DNA of 63,665 nucleotides, counting the filler, from Hausera hauseri (taxonomy: Eukaryota): NCBI GenBank assembly GCA_046269625.1. It is 10 parts of 10 records of this genome, joined end to end, with 100 filler letters (N's around TTAATTAATTAA, not from the genome) between each part and the next. Parts side by side here need not be neighbours in the genome. Positions count along the whole stretch, not along the records: positions 1 to 16,765 come from JBJURY010255513.1; 9 more parts are not named here. One strand, written 5' to 3'. The notes beneath the pieces were generated by a model. That model did no database searches. It worked only from the letters and a program-made list of their open reading frames with translations, and had not been told where the DNA came from. Position numbers and translations under genes: made by a program. Numbering within the stretch: position 1 is the stretch's first letter; each line of letters opens with the position of its first letter. Positions 118-12,680 of this stretch are shown here, piece after piece.

Positions 118-1641
118 TCAGTCATCGTCATCAACATCCACTGAAGTGGGGAGAGGGGCAATGAAAGCTGAAGGTGGCGGGTGTGCACTGAGAGGGAGGT
201 CGAACCAATTAACTGGGGGCGGAATGAAATTTGCAAGGTGTGGGTGAATCTGGGCAGCCGCTGGTGTCCAGATAGTGTCCAATTTGTTAAGACGAGATAA
301 GTGACGGAATAAGTCAAAAACATCATTGAGCATATTGGTGTAATTCAAAGTTCCAATAGAACGAATACGATTTATGCGGCATGCATCACGATAAGAAACA
401 AAACCCCATGGGCCTCTTTGTAATTCGATACTTCCCAGTATATCGTCATAACTTTGAGCAAAGCAGGCTAAGAACTGAGCAACGTCAAAAGTAACTAAGA
501 CACGTCCATAAGTGCATCGAGCCACATGCAACATGACTAGGTTGAAATCTGGAGCCGAGTCGAGCATTTGGAGGGAAATGCCATGAATGTGAGATTCGAC
601 ATTAGACAAACGCACTCGTGGGTTAATGAGTGTGGTATAACGCTGTATTAAGGAGTCGTTCTGAATTTCCCCCAGGCTTACTCCGATACATATTTTAATA
701 GCTCCAGAAAGAGCGGTTGTAAATCCCACGAGGAGGAGATCAGAATCTACTGGTTGTCTAGCTAACCTCATGAAAGAAGAAGAGTTCAATTCAGGAGGTG
801 GCAAGGGTAGTAAAGAACAATCCATCGTACGAGTTGTACCATTAGAGGACTGGGACCAATAATCGAGCCAAGGTGACGGAATAGTGTGTTCAATTTCAAT
901 CATAATAGTTGTGGGTACCGTGACAATTTGTATTTTCGGACCCATGTTATTCCATACCGATCGGGAAAAACGGATTGAGGCATACTGAGGAATAGGAATA
1001 TCAAATTCATCTGTTTGACGTGACCACTGAAACTTGAGTTGACCTTCAGCCACAGACAAAAGAGTATCATGAAGGGTATATTGTAAGTCCGGTTGTTCAA
1101 TCAAATCCTCAACAAAGGTTCGAAGTGGTAGTGTACCTTTGTGTCGAAAGCGGTTGATTATAATTGATCTATTTTGGAGGCTATTACCCTTTAACCAATT
1201 AGGTAATGAGAACGGTGTTTTGTAGCACACGGTAGGGTGGACTAGAGAATTGGCCTTAATGGATTTATATGCATTGTTAGAGCGGGCTATTTCTTGAATT
1301 TCGGATGGAGATTGCATATTAGCGATTTGTATCGGCAACCCGGGAAGACTGCGTAGGTGAAGACTCTGGGCTGTATTATCCACAAAACGTAAGGAGAATT
1401 CATCTGGCTGCGATGTTTCAATGTTAGATGATTGTGCTGGTCTGCCATCGGCGGGTATCTCGTCACCCAGGCCGTATAAGAAATTCACGGCATTGGGTGT
1501 TGCTGTATTGCCCGATGAGGGGATGACTGTTTTTCGCCCACGTAACCAAGTTAAATAAGTTGGCTCGGCCACTGAAGGTAAGGAAGAATAAGAAAAATTC
1601 GCCACAGCCATGCAGCTCGCAGCTGTAGCCAAAAGTAACCG
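118..1641 (-). CDS. ORF4, accessory protein with a degenerate DnaQ/DEDDh exonuclease-like domain; in frame with pol after one TGA
   Basis: 504+ codon ORF. The segment RYTTLINP...IHGISLQMLDSAPDF...GRVLV resembles the DnaQ-family F.TLINP...IHGIT.EML..AP.F...VLVAHN motif. Confidence 0.65.
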   Translation of the reverse strand, partial: RLLLATAASCMAVANFSYSSLPSVAEPTYLTWLRGRKTVIPSSGNTATPNAVNFLYGLGDEIPADGRPAQSSNIETSQPDEFSLRFVDNTAQSLHLRSLPGLPIQIANMQSPSEIQEIARSNNAYKSIKANSLVHPTVCYKTPFSLPNWLKGNSLQNRSIIINRFRHKGTLPLRTFVEDLIEQPDLQYTLHDTLLSVAEGQLKFQWSRQTDEFDIPIPQYASIRFSRSVWNNMGPKIQIVTVPTTIMIEIEHTIPSPWLDYWSQSSNGTTRTMDCSLLPLPPPELNSSSFMRLARQPVDSDLLLVGFTTALSGAIKICIGVSLGEIQNDSLIQRYTTLINPRVRLSNVESHIHGISLQMLDSAPDFNLVMLHVARCTYGRVLVTFDVAQFLACFAQSYDDILGSIELQRGPWGFVSYRDACRINRIRSIGTLNYTNMLNDVFDLFRHLSRLNKLDTIWTPAAAQIHPHLANFIPPPVNWFDLPLSAHPPPSAFIAPLPTSVDVDDDD

Positions 1642-4600
1642 TCATAATATTACCTCATAGTTTAGGTCATAAGTTTGACATCTGGGGTTTCGCATATGAG
1701 TTTTAGTATTCTTACTGTTGATTGTAAGATTTTCATACATACTTCCAATTTCTCTATCTGTATTTGGGGGGTGTTTTTGGAGCCAAAGAATAAGGACAGA
1801 AACTAAGACGACCGATCCTATAACGACTAGAAGAGCAATAATCAAGGAGTATACAACAAAACTGTCAACAGACATTTCCGTTACGGTTTCAATTGAAGGG
1901 GCCATACTTATAACATGGCGAAAACCATGAAGGTTCATTGAATCAGTCAATGTCTTGCACGGTAAGGGAGTCGTTCGTTGAGAAACGGAAGGATACTGTT
2001 TTTGTTCACTTTTGAATACAGGCGTTGCGCGAATTTGAAAATATCGTTGGGTAGTCGACAGGGCAGAGGTTATGATGTTATCACGTAATGACATTAGCAC
2101 AGGAAATTGCAGGATGGCGTTAAGTAACAAAAAATTGTTAAAACCAGGTACAGTAAAGCTTAGTTTCACTTTATCCTTACTGATATTTGATACCATAGTA
2201 CTATAATTGGTTTTAATAAGGATGTTATTGGAGGTGAGGTGCTTTACGTTAATATTAGCTGGAGTAAGGCATAATATTTTCAATGCTCTGTGATGTGACC
2301 CTATTACTACTGTGGTCAGATCCAACTTCTGTCTTATAGCAATCCAAGGGATTGTATAAATTTCCTTTAATTTATTGTCGAATGTTGTTGCTACTCCTTC
2401 CCACAAGTACTCTCCGGATATTTTTAACGGCTTGGCTGGAGCTTGGATCCATTGGAAAGTCAAATATCGATGTGCATAACTTACGTGGCAATTTAGTTGC
2501 AACCATACAGCTTCACTGTAATTAAATTCTTGGTGATCTATTCTAAGGGGTTCAAGGGCCTCCCCAAGCCTACTAATTGAGAGTGGGCAAATTTGTCCTA
2601 TTGAAACAGCCCGTAATTGTAGCCCCCTATGTTTTTCACACCAGAATAGTAAAACTGGGATTTCCCTGTGATATATAAATGTCGGTGCCTTCAGCAATTC
2701 GGAGTTCCATCTACTGATTTGTGTACTATTAACCCATTCTTCAATTACTTGCTGTAAGGCTTCTTCGTCCGAATGTACATAGTAGCAGTGGCCTCCTGGT
2801 GACTTAAACATACAATGGAATCGTTGGTAGCGGTGACGGCCTTGTACCAAAAAGATATTGACCTTAATGTTGTGAAGGAAGTCCGACACAAAGGTATATA
2901 AACGTAATTCATTCCTTTGCTTTGTCCATCCCCATTGAATTTTTATTCCGTGTGATAAAGATAATAAGCATAGCAATAAACAAAACATGTACAATATAGA
3001 AAACTTCGGCACGCCTAGATTTGTTGGAGCTAACTCGTTCCTGGTCTGGTTAATGCCAACATCCTGAGGTATTACCGTAACTAATTGTGTAGGGGCCTTT
3101 TTGCACCGATCTGCTGCTACAGTTATGATTTCGTCTCGCTTCCCGATTTTTTTTCGTATAAAAATGTTCGTTTCTGTAACATTTTCCACTTTATAGGGAC
3201 CTTTCCACGGGCGAGCTAATTTTGGTGACTTACCTTTTTTTACTGCAGGTTCCAAAAGCATCACGAAATCGCCTTGTTTGATTGAGTGAGGACGTGCCTT
3301 TTTATCGTAATTTCCCTTATATGTTTTCTGATAATCAAGTGTTAACGATTGTGCTAAGGCCCATGCTTTCGTCAATCGTTCCTTCAAATAGTTTACATAG
3401 TTCGGTTCATGTTTTGCCAGGGTCTCATCTGGAATTATTTCTAAATCCTTCGGCAGAAGTGGGTCACGCCCATACATAAGGAAGAATGGTGGTTGCTGTG
3501 TTGCCGAGTGTGGCGCAGTTCGCAAGGCGAACATACAAGCTGGGATGAACAAATCCCAGTCATCTTGTCTATCGTCCGTTACCGTAGCCAACATTGATAA
3601 TAATGTGCCATTTAATTTCTCGACCATACCATCACAGCAAGGGTGATAAGCAGCTGTTTTAAGCTTATATATAGAGAACAATCGGCAAACCTCTTGGAAC
3701 ATTTTATTTATAAATTCCGTTCCTTGATCTGTTAATATTTTCCTGGGAGCACCGTACCTGAACACTATTTCCTCGACAAATAATGCTGCAACAGTAAAAG
3801 CTGATTTATCAGCCATTGGAAATGCCTCTGGGAATCTAGTCAAGTAATCTACAAACACCAATATGTATTGGTTCCCGCTCTGCGTCTTCGGTAACGGTCC
3901 GATTATATCCATCGCTGAAAATTCCATGGGACTCGCTGGTGGTGGTATCGGATGCAACGGAGGTTTACATCGGTATCCCCTATTTCGTCTGGTCGCACAG
4001 ATCTTACAGCTTGCACACCATTGTTCGACATCCTTTTGAATTGTGCGCCAGTAATATTTTCGTTTAATTCTACCCAATGTCTTCTTATATGCAGGATGCC
4101 CTGCTAATAATCCGTCATGTTCTTGTTGCATAATGTCGTGTCGCCTAGATTCTGGTATCACTACCAACTGCCGATCATTGTACCAATAGCGTAATAATTC
4201 AGATGCAATAAGGTATTTTGCACCTTGACTTACCAAGTGTTGTATTAGTTCTTTATGAGAGGTATTAATTTTTCGTGTTCGCACAAATTCTCTGATTACT
4301 CTCAATTCCGCATCTTGCTCTTGTTGGTTAATCAGCATCTGAATTTCATCATCTGGGATATGTGCCGTAGTTATCTGGAAGGTCATTAATTGTGATATGT
4401 GTTTTGATTCACATCCTTCCTCCAAGCATTCTAGCTCTCGTTTAGTAGCGGGTCTACGTGACAACCCGTCCGCATTTTTATTATTTCTACCAGGCCGATA
4501 AAACACAGTTAAATTGTATGCTTGCAATTTTAGTTGCCACCGTTTTAGTCTTGAGTACGGATCTTTTACTGTTGAAAACTCTAACGGTGCATGATCTGTG

Positions 4601-6909
4601 AAGACTTTCACTTCATGACCCCATACGTAATATCGGAATTTTTCAATTGCAAAGACAATAGCCAACATTTCCTTTTCTATTACAGCATATTTTTGTTCAG
4701 TTTCCGACAAGGTTCTGCTTGCATACGCAATTACGTATTCCCATTTTGAGTCTGGTGGCATTTGTGATAACACAGCTCCCAATCCAGTGTTACTTGCGTC
4801 TGTAAATATAATGAATGGCAAGGAAAAGTCTGGATATCTGAGTATTGGTGCTGAAGACAACAGTTTCTTTAGTGTGTCAAATGATTCCTGGGTTTCTATC
4901 GTCCATAGGAATTTAGTTCCTTCATGCGTTAACGCAAATAATGGAGCTGCTATTGTACTAAAGTTTGGAACATGTTTTCTATAATAACCACACGTACCCA
5001 AAAACGCGCGTAGCTCTGTTATATTCTTCGGTATAGGCCATGCTGTGATGGCGGACACTTTTTCTGGGTTTACTTCTATGCCCTCAGCTGAAACAATGTG
5101 TCCAAGAAAAACAACTTTCAACATTGCAAATACACATTTCTTAAGTTTCAATTTGAATCCCCAAATTTCTAGTAAATCAAGAATTCTTTCGATATCATCT
5201 AGATGTTCGTCCAAGGTTCGTGAAAATATCACGATATCATCAATATAAACCATTGCGTGCGTACAGTCTAGCAGCATTGCCTCTAAGGCTTCTTGAAACG
5301 TTGAAGGTGCGTTACATAATCCAAAGGGCATTACATTGAACTCATATTGGCCTTTACCGGCGGAAAATGCTGTCTTATATTTATCCTCCTCAGCCAGTGG
5401 TACTTGCCAATACCCACTTTGCATGTCCATCGTTGTAAAATATTTGGAGCCTCGTAGTTTATCAAATATATCTTCCTGTAGTGGGAGTGGATATGAGTTC
5501 TTTACTGTTTGACTATTTAACTGTTGGAAATCCACACAAATTCTGGCTCCCCCGTCCTTTTTTGCTGCTACTACAATTGGCGATAGCCATGAAGAATTAC
5601 TTTTTCTGATGACATCATTTTCTAACATTTGTTGTAATTGACGGTTAACTTCTTCTTGCAGTGCATGTGGGATGCGATATGGTCGTTGCTTAATTGGCCT
5701 TTCATTTAATAAAGGGATGTGATGGACTACGCGGTCGGTTTTACCCAGGTCTGCATCTGATTTAGCAAAGGCCCTTAGGTGCCTTTTAAGAACACACAAC
5801 AGACGTATTTTATCTTTTCCAATTAAATCGGTTTTTATACTGTCCGCCTCTTCGAACGTGCTGATGCATTCTTCGGGCTGAATGATGTGCGATATTGCAC
5901 ATAACTGTCCAATAGTTGTATTTTGTCTGAGTACAACCGCTTGTCTATCGGTATTTACTACTCGAACTGGCAAATAGCCATCTTTAATGGGACTAATACT
6001 GCACGCTGCTTTTATTCCAAGCCTCCTATTTGAGGTTACATCAGGTTCGAATAGCATAGTTCCATTTACCATGTTTGGTGCATAACCTTGTATAATGTGT
6101 TCACTTGTGGGTTCCAATATGATTCCTTCTGGTACAATAACTACTTCCTTCCGGAATTTTACCGCTGGTATCGCGAGCTGTCCTGTAGCTAGGTTCAGAT
6201 ATCGTCCTGTACATTTACGTTGTAAATCAAGTCCCACAATTACATCCTCAACTAACTTATCGAATACTTTGAATGTGTGCTTCAGGCGTTTATTATAAAG
6301 TATTATATAAGTCGTCCAATAACCTACTGGCATTAATTTGTCGCCCCATCCTGATACAGTTGCTCGGTCCTCTTTCTTGGGGGGGGGCAGTTCAGATCTG
6401 TATCTCTCTGGTATACTCGATAATAACACTATTGAATCGTCACAACCAGTATCCACTAGAGCCACAACGTCCCAATCTTCGTGAATGGTTACTAAAGTAT
6501 ATGGCCTTTTCGTGTCCATCTTACTTTTACTAGATCGAAATGCACAGAAGTTACTAAAACTTGGTACTCTTACGTTCATGTTTTCGATTTCTGTATCCGA
6601 ATTTTCCTCATCTTCTGGCTTTATTTCGGTGATAGGTAATCTACTTGGTGTGACGATTTTTATGCCTTTCAACTGTTGTCGTAACTCTCGGTATTTAATA
6701 TATTTAGCTTTGCTACCGCTATATAACGCATCTAATTGATCATCTTTTAACTTCTCCAGACCATCTTTATCTGTTACGGGTAACTTGGGCAACGGTCTTC
6801 CCTGATTCCTAGGTTTGATTTGGTGCAGTCGAGTACAACTATTAATTTTATTGTCTCGTTCCTCACTCCTAGAATTCTTTATCCACCCCCATACATTTTT
6901 TTGGGTATT
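1642..6909 (-). CDS. pol: Pol polyprotein (aspartic protease, RT, RNase H, integrase) with in-frame C-terminal type I membrane protein extension
   Basis: ALVDTG; YIDD; TDAS...EKEMLA...TDH; HHCC; MDIIGP/TDQG/VEKLN; WKGPY. Then the signal-like FSILYMFCLLLCLLSLSHG and TM FVVYSLIIALLVVIGSVVLVSVLILWL. The frame is open from 6909. Confidence 0.93.
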   Translation of the reverse strand, partial: NTQKNVWGWIKNSRSEERDNKINSCTRLHQIKPRNQGRPLPKLPVTDKDGLEKLKDDQLDALYSGSKAKYIKYRELRQQLKGIKIVTPSRLPITEIKPEDEENSDTEIENMNVRVPSFSNFCAFRSSKSKMDTKRPYTLVTIHEDWDVVALVDTGCDDSIVLLSSIPERYRSELPPPKKEDRATVSGWGDKLMPVGYWTTYIILYNKRLKHTFKVFDKLVEDVIVGLDLQRKCTGRYLNLATGQLAIPAVKFRKEVVIVPEGIILEPTSEHIIQGYAPNMVNGTMLFEPDVTSNRRLGIKAACSISPIKDGYLPVRVVNTDRQAVVLRQNTTIGQLCAISHIIQPEECISTFEEADSIKTDLIGKDKIRLLCVLKRHLRAFAKSDADLGKTDRVVHHIPLLNERPIKQRPYRIPHALQEEVNRQLQQMLENDVIRKSNSSWLSPIVVAAKKDGGARICVDFQQLNSQTVKNSYPLPLQEDIFDKLRGSKYFTTMDMQSGYWQVPLAEEDKYKTAFSAGKGQYEFNVMPFGLCNAPSTFQEALEAMLLDCTHAMVYIDDIVIFSRTLDEHLDDIERILDLLEIWGFKLKLKKCVFAMLKVVFLGHIVSAEGIEVNPEKVSAITAWPIPKNITELRAFLGTCGYYRKHVPNFSTIAAPLFALTHEGTKFLWTIETQESFDTLKKLLSSAPILRYPDFSLPFIIFTDASNTGLGAVLSQMPPDSKWEYVIAYASRTLSETEQKYAVIEKEMLAIVFAIEKFRYYVWGHEVKVFTDHAPLEFSTVKDPYSRLKRWQLKLQAYNLTVFYRPGRNNKNADGLSRRPATKRELECLEEGCESKHISQLMTFQITTAHIPDDEIQMLINQQEQDAELRVIREFVRTRKINTSHKELIQHLVSQGAKYLIASELLRYWYNDRQLVVIPESRRHDIMQQEHDGLLAGHPAYKKTLGRIKRKYYWRTIQKDVEQWCASCKICATRRNRGYRCKPPLHPIPPPASPMEFSAMDIIGPLPKTQSGNQYILVFVDYLTRFPEAFPMADKSAFTVAALFVEEIVFRYGAPRKILTDQGTEFINKMFQEVCRLFSIYKLKTAAYHPCCDGMVEKLNGTLLSMLATVTDDRQDDWDLFIPACMFALRTAPHSATQQPPFFLMYGRDPLLPKDLEIIPDETLAKHEPNYVNYLKERLTKAWALAQSLTLDYQKTYKGNYDKKARPHSIKQGDFVMLLEPAVKKGKSPKLARPWKGPYKVENVTETNIFIRKKIGKRDEIITVAADRCKKAPTQLVTVIPQDVGINQTRNELAPTNLGVPKFSILYMFCLLLCLLSLSHGIKIQWGWTKQRNELRLYTFVSDFLHNIKVNIFLVQGRHRYQRFHCMFKSPGGHCYYVHSDEEALQQVIEEWVNSTQISRWNSELLKAPTFIYHREIPVLLFWCEKHRGLQLRAVSIGQICPLSISRLGEALEPLRIDHQEFNYSEAVWLQLNCHVSYAHRYLTFQWIQAPAKPLKISGEYLWEGVATTFDNKLKEIYTIPWIAIRQKLDLTTVVIGSHHRALKILCLTPANINVKHLTSNNILIKTNYSTMVSNISKDKVKLSFTVPGFNNFLLLNAILQFPVLMSLRDNIITSALSTTQRYFQIRATPVFKSEQKQYPSVSQRTTPLPCKTLTDSMNLHGFRHVISMAPSIETVTEMSVDSFVVYSLIIALLVVIGSVVLVSVLILWLQKHPPNTDREIGSMYENLTINSKNTKTHMRNPRCQTYDLNYEVIL

Positions 6910-9530
6910 TTACTACTTTTTATTTTTCGTTGCTTTGACCATTTGGATCCATAAACGCTCACTCTATCTGCTCCTCCACCACCATAATCTTCGTCTCGCT
7001 TTTCTCTCTCCCTCATCCACTGGGCCATAAATGCATGTTGTAAGCATCTGGCTAACGGCGGACAAAGTGCTGTTAGTATTTTCTTGGAACAACCAAAAAG
7101 TTGGAAATTTATAAATCCATTAGTTATTTGTGCGATTATCGTTCGTAGAATTTGCACTATGAAGTAAATAGCTAGAAATCCAGATGACACTTGTCCAAAC
7201 GTCATCATTCCCCCCCATAACTTTTTGAATATCGTCTTAGCTGCCTTGGTAAAATGATCCGGGCTTAAGATGTTTTCCCAGTTTGTTTTTCCATTTCCTG
7301 TATCAGTAACTTTCTGTGTATATGACACTATAAGCCTTTGTAATTGTTTCGGAAACAATAAGTATCTTCTTAATTTTTCCATACTAGCCTCATCGTACAA
7401 ACCTCCTTGAAAAAAATTAACATTATTGTCGAACTTCAATTGTTGTTTTAATGCCAGCATTGTCAGTTTCTTGGGAGTTATTATTTTCGTTCTTGACGGC
7501 ATCGTAACCCAGTGATCATGTCCAATCTTAAACAGTGGTGCAACGTTTCTTATGCACTCCTTTAATACCGTTGGATCTTCGGTTGGTATCAACATTACTC
7601 TCGTTATTGGTGCTACGTATCTTATGTGCCCATTATATTTTACGGCTATTTCATTGGTACATATCGTAGTATCTACCACTGGTACGTCAACTTCCCGACA
7701 CTGAAAGGTTACTAACCCTTCTCCAGTAGTTCTACCGAATACTCCTCGTTGTTTTGTTGGTAGGATTGGGGTATCTATCGAAGGGTTATGGGCTGCTACT
7801 GTGACTCGTAATGCCAATAGATCCTGTGTTATCAAGCAGTCGTTTTGGAGCATTTCCTTGTATATTTTATACTGATTATTGAGCATATAGTGGAACAGAT
7901 AATCCATTTTACCGTTGTAATATACCATTGGTTTAATCTCAGTTGGGTGCACTTGTTTTTGCGCATCTACTACTTCTGTTGTCTTAAGGTATATATCTTC
8001 GACGTTAGTAGAATATACCTCTGTTTTACATTTGATCACTATTTGTTTTCTTATCAATCGTATTGCATCATCGACTGTTGACATTAGGACTGCCGGTGTC
8101 TCAATCTCTGTTAACCGTTGTACGTCCGTATCCTCAGTGTGCGTCGGTGTTGGCTTTGAAAATCTAACACCTTTTGTAATATTGAACGTTACAGCTTTAA
8201 TGAAGGCTAGATTACAGGTTATAACTTCCACGTTCCAGGTAATTATCGAATCTGTGGTAAAACAATACCCATTACCATATACACAGTCCATCCGAATCAT
8301 TAGTTTCAATGTGTCAGCGTCAAACGTAATTTCTTTATCGGTAACTGTCCATGCATACAGATTTTGTACCACTATCCGTGATACTTCATCCACAGTTTGT
8401 CCTGTACATGTCCCGTCTTTACCTACCATACCTCCTTCATTTATTGTTAGGTATTTAATACCATTAACTATTGTTGTTATTTCTACCTTGTCGTTTACCT
8501 TCAACTTACCCAGTCTCACAGCCTCTTTGCAATCGTCCGGCAGCACTCTCTGGGGCTCATCTGGTGACGCTATTAATAGGTTCGTTGAGTGAGTATGGGC
8601 TTTGCCACAATGCCATTTTTTTGTTTGTTTCGTCAATTTACATTCCAACGCTCTTACTCGAAAAAATTTATTTTCCTGATATATATAATATTTTGTTGAT
8701 GGTTCTGTTATCAGTTTGTCCGGTTCGGCATCAGGGCATTTCTCTAGATCAACTAAGGAGTACGTGGCTCCTACTTCTGGTTTATCGCAATCAAATGCCT
8801 TGATCCCCTGCCCTTGAGGTAGACGCCATAAAACTAACATAATTAACAAGACACTCATCATTCCTTCCAAATTCAATCGTGGCGCATTATCCAATATTTC
8901 CTCAAAACCTTTTATTATTTGTAGAAAACCCTTTTCCATGTTATAGGGATTTTTAACGGGCCGACCTTGCTTTTGCTGGTATCCTCGTTCTGCTGGTTGT
9001 GGGATATGATTAAGGTCCAACAATTTGTCCCACCCACCAAATCGCTGTGCTCCCCCGGATAAATTATTCTTTGCAATCTCCATCGCAATCTCGTTATTAT
9101 TTTCAAAGTCCTCTTGCTTTTCACTTGACATCTGTACTCTCATTGCTAAATATACGAGGATTGCGATCATACGGTCCTTCGACACTGCTCCATCCTGCAT
9201 CCATTTTTGAATTATCTCACTATCCTTTAACGGATCGATTGAACTTGGTAATTCTTCCTTCGTTATTGCTTTTTCCATTTGCTGCAATACTTGTTTAAGG
9301 TGCCCTTCAATACCATGATCACCTTCTTTTTCCTCCTCTTGTGACCAAGGTTTGTCATCATCCTTGTATAAGATTTTATAAATTTTATAAAAAGTTTGTT
9401 TAATTTGTCTACTCTCCGGATATAAATTATTCGTCTCGGTCGTACGCAAAGCTCGGGTTAGTGTGTCAACACTAATTTGTTCTATTAGATTTTTTTTGGT
9501 CTCCCTCTTGGTTTCTTTCTTATCTGGGCT
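6879..9530 (-). CDS. env: Envelope glycoprotein, chuvirus/gB-like (class III-type), preceded by a ~200 aa helical leader and internal signal sequence
   Basis: Hydrophobic MMSVLLIMLVLW is followed by GIKAFDC...TYSLVDLEKC, a Cys-rich ectodomain (DGTC, QNDC, FQC, TICTNEI), GGLY, and the TM region GQVSSGFLAIYFIVQILRTII. The frame is open from 9530. Confidence 0.8.
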   Translation of the reverse strand, partial: SPDKKETKRETKKNLIEQISVDTLTRALRTTETNNLYPESRQIKQTFYKIYKILYKDDDKPWSQEEEKEGDHGIEGHLKQVLQQMEKAITKEELPSSIDPLKDSEIIQKWMQDGAVSKDRMIAILVYLAMRVQMSSEKQEDFENNNEIAMEIAKNNLSGGAQRFGGWDKLLDLNHIPQPAERGYQQKQGRPVKNPYNMEKGFLQIIKGFEEILDNAPRLNLEGMMSVLLIMLVLWRLPQGQGIKAFDCDKPEVGATYSLVDLEKCPDAEPDKLITEPSTKYYIYQENKFFRVRALECKLTKQTKKWHCGKAHTHSTNLLIASPDEPQRVLPDDCKEAVRLGKLKVNDKVEITTIVNGIKYLTINEGGMVGKDGTCTGQTVDEVSRIVVQNLYAWTVTDKEITFDADTLKLMIRMDCVYGNGYCFTTDSIITWNVEVITCNLAFIKAVTFNITKGVRFSKPTPTHTEDTDVQRLTEIETPAVLMSTVDDAIRLIRKQIVIKCKTEVYSTNVEDIYLKTTEVVDAQKQVHPTEIKPMVYYNGKMDYLFHYMLNNQYKIYKEMLQNDCLITQDLLALRVTVAAHNPSIDTPILPTKQRGVFGRTTGEGLVTFQCREVDVPVVDTTICTNEIAVKYNGHIRYVAPITRVMLIPTEDPTVLKECIRNVAPLFKIGHDHWVTMPSRTKIITPKKLTMLALKQQLKFDNNVNFFQGGLYDEASMEKLRRYLLFPKQLQRLIVSYTQKVTDTGNGKTNWENILSPDHFTKAAKTIFKKLWGGMMTFGQVSSGFLAIYFIVQILRTIIAQITNGFINFQLFGCSKKILTALCPPLARCLQHAFMAQWMREREKRDEDYGGGGADRVSVYGSKWSKQRKIKSSKIPKKMYGGG

Positions 9531-11983
9531 TCAGTATTTCGTTGCATCGTTCCTTTGGGCAGTACTTCGTCACCTAGTTCTGGTACTTCTGCAAATACCC
9601 ATAACGGTTCCGGTATCTCCTTTAATTGATTAATCGAATTATCTGAACCTGACTTGAGGGGCCGGATGTATTCTGTTGCACCCAATACCTTATTTATTTG
9701 TCGTTCCAATTTGTGTTGATCATCGTCCCTTTTCCTTTGGGATTCCTCAAGATATATTTCAACAATTTCGTTAGGATCCATTCCAGACATAACTCCTAAT
9801 TCCGTCCATTTTATATCTAAGTCATTTACTTGACGCCCCATGAACCTAATAGTAATAACAATATCCTCGTCATTACAACGCCACTGATTTTCAGGTAACA
9901 ATATCTTTAATATCTTCTGTATCGGTGCCTCAGGGTCTATCATAGCTTGTGTTTCAGTGTATACCTTTCCGTCAATTATCCTAAATTGAAGCAAAATGTC
10001 ACCTTCCTCTTTTTGAGGCTTAAAGCCTTCCTTTTGAGCGAATATTTGCAATATCAACCGTGCCATATCTCTTCGCGGAGCTCCATCTGCCGCTTGGGCT
10101 ATGAGATATTTTCTAACTTTGATAATCCGTGTTTTATGCTCGGTTATCCACTCACGGAGTTCATACATTTGATCCATTATTGTTGGTGTTACATCATTGG
10201 TTGGGTCGTTCTCTATTTTCTCGAGTAATGCCCTGAACTGTTCTTCGTGGTAGTCGATTTCATTTGCATTATCTGGCTCTTCAGCAGTTGCTGGAGGCGT
10301 TGTTACTTCATAATCTTCTAGTATCATTATAGGTATATCTTTATCTTTTTCACCTTCCTCCCTTGTTTTGGTTAGTACGTCTGTATTGTTATCGTTTAGC
10401 GGTGCTATCTGATTAAGGTGTAGCGATTTCAATCTTTCAAACTGGGTTCGCATATCATCAAGTTCCAATTTGTGTTGTTTCATTTGAAAAATCATTTCTT
10501 CCCGTGTTAAAGACATATCTTCTGTCTCAGGGGATACAGAGATTATACCTTCCTCCCGGAGACCTTGTGAACTATTAGTATGTGCTATCTGATTAGTCGC
10601 ATCCATTTCTTCATGCATCTGATAGCAATTCGTGTCATCCATTGGATTAAATGATGCACTTGCATCATACACAGAGTGCATCAGTGCCATGCTAGTCGGA
10701 TTAATATTGCCATACCTTATCGGGCACTTCTTTGCCAGATGTCCTGCTTGGCCACAATTGAAACAGTTCTTAGGTTGCGATACACCAAAATTTTGTTGCG
10801 TTGCAGGCTGTATCAAGCCTTGTTGTTGCTGTATGGGACATGTTTTTGCTGTATGTCCCCTTTGGCCACAAGCGTAGCATTGCTTCGGAGATTGTGCATG
10901 TGGCGGAGTGGTAAACGGCATTTGTGCCATATATGGGCATGACTTCGCCAGGTGTCCAAAGTTTTTACAATTATGGCACTGTATAAGCCCTTTTGCATTG
11001 ATATTATCGTGTTCGAGTATGGTTGTTTGGTTTCTGTTACCTGTGGATCGTAATGAATACGGCATAGTTTTGGCAGAACTTCCCATTGGCGCGACCTGCA
11101 ATCGATTGACTGCAGCACCGGTTGACATAGCATTTGATCCTGTTGGTTGTCGTACATTGCCGCCGTCTGTTGGGGACGTTTGTCGTTGTATTGGTGGTTG
11201 ATGTGGACGCACTCCGAGTCCCATATTCCATTGAGGCCTAGTGTATACCATTGGATGCCTCGGTGGTCGCAACCATTGTTGTTGCGGCCATCCTTTTCCA
11301 AGGTCCACGTGTTTGTTCCATGTGTTACGACCTGTTGGTTGGTTAATATTAAATGTTGATGACTGAGTAATTTGCGCATGAGGTATAGACGGTGACGTAT
11401 CTTGATGTAATAAACCTCTCTGTAATATTTGTGACATTTTAACATCGACATTTTCATGAGCTATAGCCTTTTTAACTAATTCACTAAATGTCGTGGCCTC
11501 ACTCTCGATTAAATGTCGCTGTACTTTGGGGTTTCGTAAACCCGTTATGAAGCAATCCACAAGAATAGGCTCTGTTTCAAAAACCTTCTTGTCGTCGGCT
11601 TTTTTATCTCTATTCTCGTTTTCCAGCGCGACTTTATATCGTTTTGCTAAAGCTTGTAAGGCTAGAGCGAACATATTCACGGATTCTCCCGCATGCTGCA
11701 CGCGTGATCGTAAATGTCTTAATCGGGCATTGGACGAAGGGTCCGGATCGACACATTTTCTCAATCTTTCAACTATTTCCTTCCATGGTTTATCCGCCTT
11801 GTCTATCTGAAGGTATGCCTGCAGTGCCACACCTTCCAAGTACCCTACCAATTTCTTTACTTTCTCTTTATCATCCCAGTCGACGCTATCCGCCTGTGCT
11901 TCATACATAGTAATGAAGTCGTCAAAGGCGGCCGGCTCACCGGCATATCTATTAATATTTAAGCCTGCATATAATTGCGCCAT
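9485..11983 (-). CDS. gag: Gag with capsid-like N-terminus, 3 CCHC zinc knuckles, SUMO/ubiquitin-like domain and C-terminal AT-hook
   Basis: Retrotransposon-gag N-terminus (WDDKEKVKKLVGYLEGVAL; QHAGESVNMFALAL). Knuckles CHNCKNFGHLAKSC, CYACGQRGHTAKTC and CFNCGQAGHLAKKC. Ends RKKPRGRPKK. Confidence 0.9.
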   Translation of the reverse strand: MAQLYAGLNINRYAGEPAAFDDFITMYEAQADSVDWDDKEKVKKLVGYLEGVALQAYLQIDKADKPWKEIVERLRKCVDPDPSSNARLRHLRSRVQHAGESVNMFALALQALAKRYKVALENENRDKKADDKKVFETEPILVDCFITGLRNPKVQRHLIESEATTFSELVKKAIAHENVDVKMSQILQRGLLHQDTSPSIPHAQITQSSTFNINQPTGRNTWNKHVDLGKGWPQQQWLRPPRHPMVYTRPQWNMGLGVRPHQPPIQRQTSPTDGGNVRQPTGSNAMSTGAAVNRLQVAPMGSSAKTMPYSLRSTGNRNQTTILEHDNINAKGLIQCHNCKNFGHLAKSCPYMAQMPFTTPPHAQSPKQCYACGQRGHTAKTCPIQQQQGLIQPATQQNFGVSQPKNCFNCGQAGHLAKKCPIRYGNINPTSMALMHSVYDASASFNPMDDTNCYQMHEEMDATNQIAHTNSSQGLREEGIISVSPETEDMSLTREEMIFQMKQHKLELDDMRTQFERLKSLHLNQIAPLNDNNTDVLTKTREEGEKDKDIPIMILEDYEVTTPPATAEEPDNANEIDYHEEQFRALLEKIENDPTNDVTPTIMDQMYELREWITEHKTRIIKVRKYLIAQAADGAPRRDMARLILQIFAQKEGFKPQKEEGDILLQFRIIDGKVYTETQAMIDPEAPIQKILKILLPENQWRCNDEDIVITIRFMGRQVNDLDIKWTELGVMSGMDPNEIVEIYLEESQRKRDDDQHKLERQINKVLGATEYIRPLKSGSDNSINQLKEIPEPLWVFAEVPELGDEVLPKGTMQRNTEAQIRKKPRGRPKKI

Positions 11984-12108
11984 TTAATGTCTGCAATCTC
12001 GTGCTTCACGTCGTATTTCAAAAAGTCAAACAACAAGAATAGTTATATAAAGGGATAAAGATCAAAACAACTGATTTAACAAAAATAATTCAAAAGGAAC
12101 AGATTAGT

Positions 12109-12121
12109 GGCGTGGTCGCCA
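12109..12121 (-). promoter_or_regulatory. Primer binding site, probably tRNA-Arg
   Basis: Minus-strand TGGCGACCACGCC lies between the LTR end and gag. It is complementary to a ...CGUGGUCGCCA tRNA 3' end, as in animal tRNA-Arg(UCG) isodecoders. Confidence 0.7.
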
Positions 12122-12125
12122 GATT

Positions 12126-12680
12126 TGTTGTGGCCCCTTGCCTAATAAAAGCTCTCTGTATTTTACTTGATTATCTATTTATTTATTACTTTGGAGACTT
12201 CCCCAATTAAATGCCCGTCTACCCTACTGTTTATGGTGCCCTCAAGATCACTGGGCTTGTCCCAAAGATCGTGGTTACTTTTAACCCTAACCTCAGTCCC
12301 TCTTTAGTTTTACCTCAGTAGCCACTGAGCTAACTCTCAAAAGCTACACTCGTTAGTTAAAGTAATGGGTCGCAGTAATTATACTCAAATTAAAAAAAAT
12401 AGGTAGTATGGCGGCTACAAACAAACAAAAAAAACAAAAAGAACATACTTTATTACAAGCCAAACCGTTCAAATCATTTTGTCAATAAAGTTTTTTTTGT
12501 CAGTCCCCAGATGCAGTTTATATAATACTGACATCGTGGGATTAAATTACAAAAATCAGCCAATGATTCAACAAATAATGACAGAGTGTCACAAAAATTG
12601 TTACACAAAATCAATCATACACCCGTATTACTACGGCTAATTGTTACACCAGTTGCCGAAAAAGAATACAATTTGTTACA
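12126..12680 (-). repeat. Putative 5' LTR
   Basis: The minus strand ends ...CCACAACA 4 nt before the PBS. It contains TATATAAA (~12516-12523) upstream of AATAAA (~12448-12453). Candidate start TGTAACAA at 12680, with alternatives near 12605 and 12648. No second LTR is available to confirm the boundaries. Confidence 0.55.

Follow-up and report, generated by a model that had tools for sequence, protein, structure and literature searches.

An in-frame membrane-protein cassette after integrase in a clade of errantivirus-like retroelements, a candidate host-cell-side surface accessory

The window, i.e. the whole stretch of 63,665 nucleotides (filler included) analysed from assembly GCA_046269625.1 of Hausera hauseri, consists of ten short contigs placed end to end with N spacers between them. 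Its first contig carries a retroelement on the minus strand. The gag gene with three CCHC knuckles was located by ORF scan and Pfam at 9485..11983, and an env ORF of 883 codons at 6879..9530, between gag and pol, encodes a gB/chuvirus-type class III fusion glycoprotein (PF24664, E 4.9e-68) that includes an internal signal-like segment as judged by hydropathy. The ORF scan further revealed a Pol ORF of 1755 aa stop to stop (1642-6909), in which the Pfam domains for protease, RT, RNase H and integrase with its GPY module occupy 3004..6909. An accessory ORF of 507 codons (118..1641, minus strand) encodes a beta-rich N-half and a DEDD-exonuclease-like C-half (RNase_T, E 0.007) in which the acidic first motif is missing. 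A likely 5' LTR at about 12125-12540, of approximate boundaries, and a primer-binding-site-like TGG stretch at 12109-12121, both on the minus strand, were read by eye. For the LTR pair, a joint from 12540 to 1 was seen in a read contig, and the 3' LTR falls outside the window, past its first position. Given the PR-RT-RH-IN order, the GPY module and an Env of gB/chuvirus type encoded between gag and pol, the element is a GAG-ENV-POL errantivirus-like Ty3/gypsy retrotransposon. The element family is probably of flatworm origin, and a flatworm host is likely.

The gag, env and pol ORFs overlap in differing frames at A-rich runs (6879-6909 and 9485-9530), which may represent either programmed frameshifting or a lesion of this copy. 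Unlike in the window, Env and Pol form one ORF in the related elements P0002, P0003, P0008 and L003. Deep contigs of run X1 have homopolymer lengths unlike those of the window in the protease, env and LTR regions (6000-7300 and 12000-12500), and these differences may be due to sequencing error or to broken copies. The rest of the window (16766-59652) includes pieces of PRP38, primase large subunit and FAF1/UBX in long intron-free ORFs, as well as decayed retroelements.

The Pol frame runs on beyond integrase. The GPY module is found at aa 1237 (nt 3201) of the Pol ORF, and about 30 aa past it begins an internal signal-peptide-like segment, FSILYMFCLLLCLLSLSHG, at aa 1303-1321 (2947..3003, minus strand), with a predicted cleavage site that was placed by eye. 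Next come a predicted ectodomain of 362 aa (aa 1322-1683; 1861..2946, minus strand), a TM helix of 27 aa with a peak hydropathy of 3.26 (1780..1860, minus strand) and a cytoplasmic tail of 45 aa (1642..1779, minus strand). The ectodomain has seven Cys residues, a stalk rich in Ser, Thr and Pro, and four sequons that are candidate N-glycosylation sites (NST 1394, NYS 1463, NYS 1568 and NIS 1575, Pol numbering). By motif scan, the tail carries two YxxL/I motifs and closes with VIL, a PDZ-type pattern of class II, which is followed by the UGA stop codon of Pol at 1642-1644. These features are those of a type I membrane glycoprotein, the signal peptide and TM being assigned by hydropathy alone. 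In the cassette frame, 1645-3012 is free of stops, as compared with 20-37 stops in each of the other five frames. Thus, the sequence-only reading of this region as a type I membrane glycoprotein fused in frame after integrase was confirmed for the signal-like segment, ectodomain, TM helix and tail.

A chance ORF was ruled out by the stop-free frame and by a distant homologue of the ectodomain (see below). A single contig of run X1, which may be the source of the window DNA, covers integrase, cassette and the next ORF (892-3758, one difference). Hence, the fusion of integrase and cassette is not an assembly join.

The accessory ORF lies in the frame of Pol directly past its stop (window 1542-1644), in the context UGA-CGG. 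This context is described as a Type II readthrough motif in the available text of PMC3159437. The predicted RNA fold 3' of the Pol stop is weak (z -1.9). Readthrough, if it occurs, would tether the pseudo-exonuclease to the cassette tail. As a family trait it was rejected: none of the four related loci has this stop context, and in each the following ORF begins only 160-510 bases further on. Homologous DEDD-exonuclease-like ORFs follow the cassette in L001 (7268-8743 and 9043-10374), L002 (5011-6528) and L003 (10617-12107); one of the two in L001 apparently lacks the acidic first motif and the other keeps it.

Relatives of the integrase were examined among the best 120 of 213 matches. Seven are set apart at 382-403 bits versus 298 bits for the next, and together with the window they form one clade in a 33-row tree (support 100/99). 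In six of the seven, the frame continues into a signal segment, ectodomain, TM and tail. In P0002, Env is present and the ORF ends after a second protease-like domain with no cassette in it, though a cassette past a break is possible. Two hydrophobic segments after integrase were found in none of the remaining 113 Pols of the best 120, and one such segment in three. A metagenome scan, in which 80 of 429 loci were kept, gave 50 ORFs matching integrase. Four of them fall within the clade (support 99), each with the cassette. Two of these four are duplicates (L001 of P0004 and L002 of P0008), and L003 and L047 are new. Among the other 46 ORFs, a TM-bearing tail of different layout occurs in L031 alone. 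L031 (2157-9338) is an unrelated gypsy element with an envelope-like tail of 727 residues in frame after integrase.

The cassette is therefore a clade trait, present in nine of ten distinct members (window included), and in all nine no stop separates it from integrase. In P0003 and P0008, Gag, Env, Pol and cassette are encoded in a single ORF, and their Env also has an internal signal segment; L003, by reading, has Env and cassette in one ORF. Co-occurrence of Env and cassette refers to the members whose available sequence covers the Env region, which P0004-P0007 and L047 are not among. Absence of the extension from close relatives, or a lack of purifying selection there, had been named as grounds for abandoning the sequence-only reading; what was found is the cassette in nine of the ten clade members and a distant homologue of the ectodomain.

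The region after integrase holds other domains in some members. An aspartic-protease-like domain, additional to that of Pol, is found there in P0002, P0004, P0005 and P0008, and in the last three it lies between integrase and cassette. P0004 includes ankyrin repeats in this region. In L003, an extra signal-ectodomain-TM cassette is located between Env and Pol (about 4750-5330), and the 3426-aa ORF that houses it also holds three protease-like motifs.

The ectodomains of the clade span 104-390 aa and fall into at least three types that cannot be aligned with one another. A short Cys-rich type of 104-121 aa is present in P0003, P0007 and P0008, and a type built of repeated two-Cys (beta) units in P0004, P0005, P0006, L003 and L047. 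When lineages of the second type were left out one at a time, 0, 0, 4 and 76 of 200 shuffles scored as well. Its units presumably resemble FN3 by motif, the match to PF00041 being at E 0.13 only. The window has a third type that aligns with neither of the others: against a profile of 12 two-Cys units, 153 of 230 scored shuffles were as good, and the hhalign probability was under 1%. A global alignment of the window ectodomain with those of P0004 and P0005 gave z 3.2-3.6 with the TM included, and remote homology to them may exist. As the window is just 46-50% identical in integrase, such homology may have been lost from view, and hence the term swapped holds between types rather than for every pair.

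The cassettes also diverge far faster than Env. At 77-82% integrase identity, cassettes are 27-41% identical, and in P0003 and P0008, the sole pair with both proteins, identity is 34% for the cassette versus 65% for Env. The co-conservation with the fusogen that an obligate gH/gL- or Gn-like partner should display was thus not found, there being at least three ectodomain types beside this difference in identity. The ectodomain is read, from these sequence comparisons, as an exchangeable and fast-evolving surface module.

Homology searches returned one relative of the window ectodomain. HMMER against 1.84 billion representative proteins gave P0142 as the single match (E 8.6e-4), with 33% identity over 110 aa, corresponding to 2062..2370 of the window (minus strand). 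P0142 is encoded on a 2.5-kb contig. By this match, a portion of the ectodomain is conserved as a coding domain. No matches were obtained in word-index searches of proteins that used the cassette by itself or as a region of Pol (5096 and 3997 candidates), in scans of viral contigs with the cassette, the Env alignment, the Pol alignment and the accessory ORF, in the metagenome scan with the Env alignment, or in PDB sequence searches with the domain of the window and the repeat units of the relatives. In Pfam, the cassette had no match above noise, and no homology to fusogens of class I, II or III was found, in agreement with the earlier remark that it shares no obvious motif with the first glycoprotein. 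The structure prediction that had been proposed as a check was informative for the TM helix alone: AF2 models of the ectodomain have pLDDT 36-37, only the helix being confident, and Foldseek with the second model gave no match at E 0.001, which is uninformative at such model confidence. Neighbours by ESM features include Ig-like receptors and KSHV K1 at 0.82-0.84, which is below threshold and provides leads only.

Selection was assessed from diverged X1 contigs over part of the ectodomain, with 40 of 136 differences listed. One such contig (2636-3192) crosses the junction of integrase and signal, with 71 differences and four gaps in two offsetting pairs. The 19 listed differences in the ectodomain comprise eight synonymous, 11 non-synonymous and no stop (omega about 0.5, p 0.13), and 20 of 26 listed in integrase are synonymous. 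Near-identical, mostly low-depth X2 and X3 contigs have six non-synonymous differences and one stop (n=7). Hence, the dN/dS comparison that had been put forward as a check at most suggests purifying selection on the window ectodomain, and the data also fit relaxed or mixed selection.

The tails have a more constant end. A PDZ-type C-terminal pattern is present in all nine cassettes versus 22 of 113 other Pols of the best 120 of 213, a background of 19% that marks the pattern as loose. Since clade members are related, the fairer figure for this excess is the one that counts 4-5 lineages, about 0.001. The final residue is V or L in every case, and the ends comprise five of class I, two of class II and two of class III; that of the window is of class II and those of most relatives are of class I or III. 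Some true viral envelope proteins likewise have PDZ ends, and for this reason the motif is compatible with a location on the particle. The Tyr motifs of the window tail are SMYENL and LNYEVI. Tyr is present in nine of nine tails, and YxxPhi is missing from three of them. A diverged X1 contig (1560-1665, depth 36.5) matches the window only over the final seven cassette codons and the beginning of the ORF that follows, and is unlike it thereafter; selection may act here on the C-terminus or else on a signal in the RNA.

The leading, still tentative, reading of these sequence features is that the cassette encodes a surface accessory acting on the side of the host cell, with a tail that docks scaffolds and likely places particle exit at cell contacts. 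The Gag-Env-Pol-cassette chain would enter the ER at the internal signal of Env, return at the TM of Env, and re-enter the ER at the second signal, that of the cassette. Host signal peptidase would then free the end of the ectodomain, and trimming on the integrase side could fall to a viral protease, in keeping with the second protease domain found before the cassette in three relatives. The freed type I protein would likely be displayed at the surface of the infected cell, where its Tyr motifs and PDZ-type end would likely anchor it to scaffolds of the host membrane, in polarised regions or at junctions. Such docking would concentrate particle exit at cell contacts, and the ectodomain would serve as an adhesion or decoy module rather than as a required partner for the class III fusogen. 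The combination of a constant PDZ-type tail end with a changing outside suggests that the protein works on the cytoplasmic face of producer cells.

Processing from within the polyprotein fits the family well, given the single ORFs and internal Env signals of P0003 and P0008 and the lack, in P0007 and P0008, of any Met 60 residues or less from the predicted cleavage site. In the window, unlike in those two relatives, a Met lies 14 residues upstream of the predicted signal cleavage, and a spliced message may therefore add to the fusion; in two other relatives a Met is located 16-23 residues before the site. These Met positions and the weak selection signal would also suit an ORF that is expressed separately, from its own Met or a spliced leader, and for which the shared frame with Pol is a mere formality, or a captured piece of a gene that evolves neutrally. 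Either is very improbable, considering the stop-free frame from integrase to cassette in nine of nine elements, the two relatives with no nearby Met, the lack of a strong pyrimidine tract ahead of ten candidate AG sites and, against a neutral piece, the conserved C-terminal pattern and the distant homologue.

A somewhat unlikely alternative is two-glycoprotein entry, in which the protein is carried on the particle, attaches it to a receptor and cooperates with the gB-type fusogen. Receptor-binding proteins evolve fast, as the cassettes do, and the repeated beta units of the relatives may be FN3-like by motif. The polyprotein and topology shared with Env in P0003, P0008 and L003 would agree with a pairing, and an Atlas polyprotein ending in an attachment and fusion pair is described in the accessible part of PMC9094657. 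Against it stand ectodomains of at least three types that resist alignment, alongside a single conserved family of Env, the P0002 ORF with Env and no cassette (one past a break being possible), and the further cassette between Env and Pol in L003. In addition, fusogens of the rhabdovirus/chuvirus kind, to which that of the family belongs, are thought to attach and fuse alone. Of the two-glycoprotein entry system proposed from sequence alone, the second, unrelated membrane protein thus stands; the fixed second entry protein is unsupported, because the ectodomains cannot be aligned and change faster than Env. A related possibility, rather doubtful, is that the clade keeps an exchangeable display slot, in which receptor-like ectodomains with no kinship to one another are exchanged on a tail that docks scaffolds, as an attachment module that sets the target cells of the fusogen.

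The tail could instead belong to a receptor mimic that, like herpesvirus K1, damps or redirects host signalling or blocks superinfection via phosphotyrosine motifs. The window tail has two ITIM-like motifs (matched by 26 of 20000 shuffles, a post hoc comparison), and the Tyr in every tail and the feature neighbours of the ectodomain would agree with such a role; it is nevertheless unlikely, as ITIM-like motifs are present in only three of six protein relatives and YxxPhi is not constant. The attachment or immune-modulating function suggested earlier is therefore retained in part: conserved topology, Tyr-bearing tails and the PDZ-type end favour the host-cell-side accessory, and fixed partnering with the fusogen is disfavoured.

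The GAG-ENV-POL order with HSV/gB-type Env is known from Platyhelminthes, Nematoda and Bryozoa, according to the available text of Chary and Hayashi (PMC13524379). Like the errantiviruses described there, the window has a Ty3/gypsy Pol and a gB-type Env between gag and pol, and its Env shares motifs by eye with Schmidtea rows in supplement 2 of that paper as available. In the accessible portion of the same paper, a chromodomain is the sole post-integrase domain discussed, and neither a second membrane protein nor the word 'attachment' appears. Related Burro elements are said to collect host-modulating domains. For Burro and GYPSM1, giant gypsy-like elements of planarians, the accessible part of PMC6431247 reports that Env is in frame with Gag before it and Pol after it, that the polyprotein contains accessory domains and that accessory ORFs are present, as in the window clade, with ankyrin shared with P0004. 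These elements are much larger than that of the window, and a post-integrase membrane protein is not described in that part of the paper. Atlas and related nematode belpaoviruses also have a single polyprotein with membrane glycoproteins after Pol; Atlas is, however, a BEL/Pao element with a virus-derived Gn-Gc pair and a class II fusogen (PMC9094657, in the portion available). In the window clade, unlike in Atlas, the fusogen is upstream, and the post-integrase protein is variable in type and has no known relative.

In LTR elements of bdelloid rotifers, too, the cargo slot at the 3' end is variable and houses TM proteins as well as DEDD exonucleases, and the accessible text of PMC5408684 cautions that a TM plus sequons does not suffice for calling an env. 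The bdelloid ORF3 proteins are encoded by separate ORFs that replace env, as stated in that text, whereas the window cassette adds to env. sORF2 of MDG1-group retrotransposons is, as far as the available part of PMC11952523 describes it, also a non-Env membrane protein located at cell contacts and aiding spread; it is a short FAST-like protein of env-less elements with no large ectodomain. In openly accessible full texts, no publication on a post-integrase receptor-like protein was found, and figures or supplements of PMC13524379 may show the extension. Thus, gene order, the gB-type fusogen, variable 3' cargo ORFs and belpaovirus polyproteins ending in a glycoprotein pair are already known. 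New here are the clade count, the evidence that the ectodomain exists in several types, the difference in rate from Env and the ectodomain type of the window.

Annotation of Pol that ends at integrase misses a gene in these elements. The cassette may bear on how non-insect env-bearing retrotransposons exit cells and choose their targets. If the display-slot possibility is true, the clade would have a modular two-protein tropism system for retroelements. A clade-wide second surface protein, variable outside and with a constant scaffold-type end, provides a testable handle on exit and targeting.
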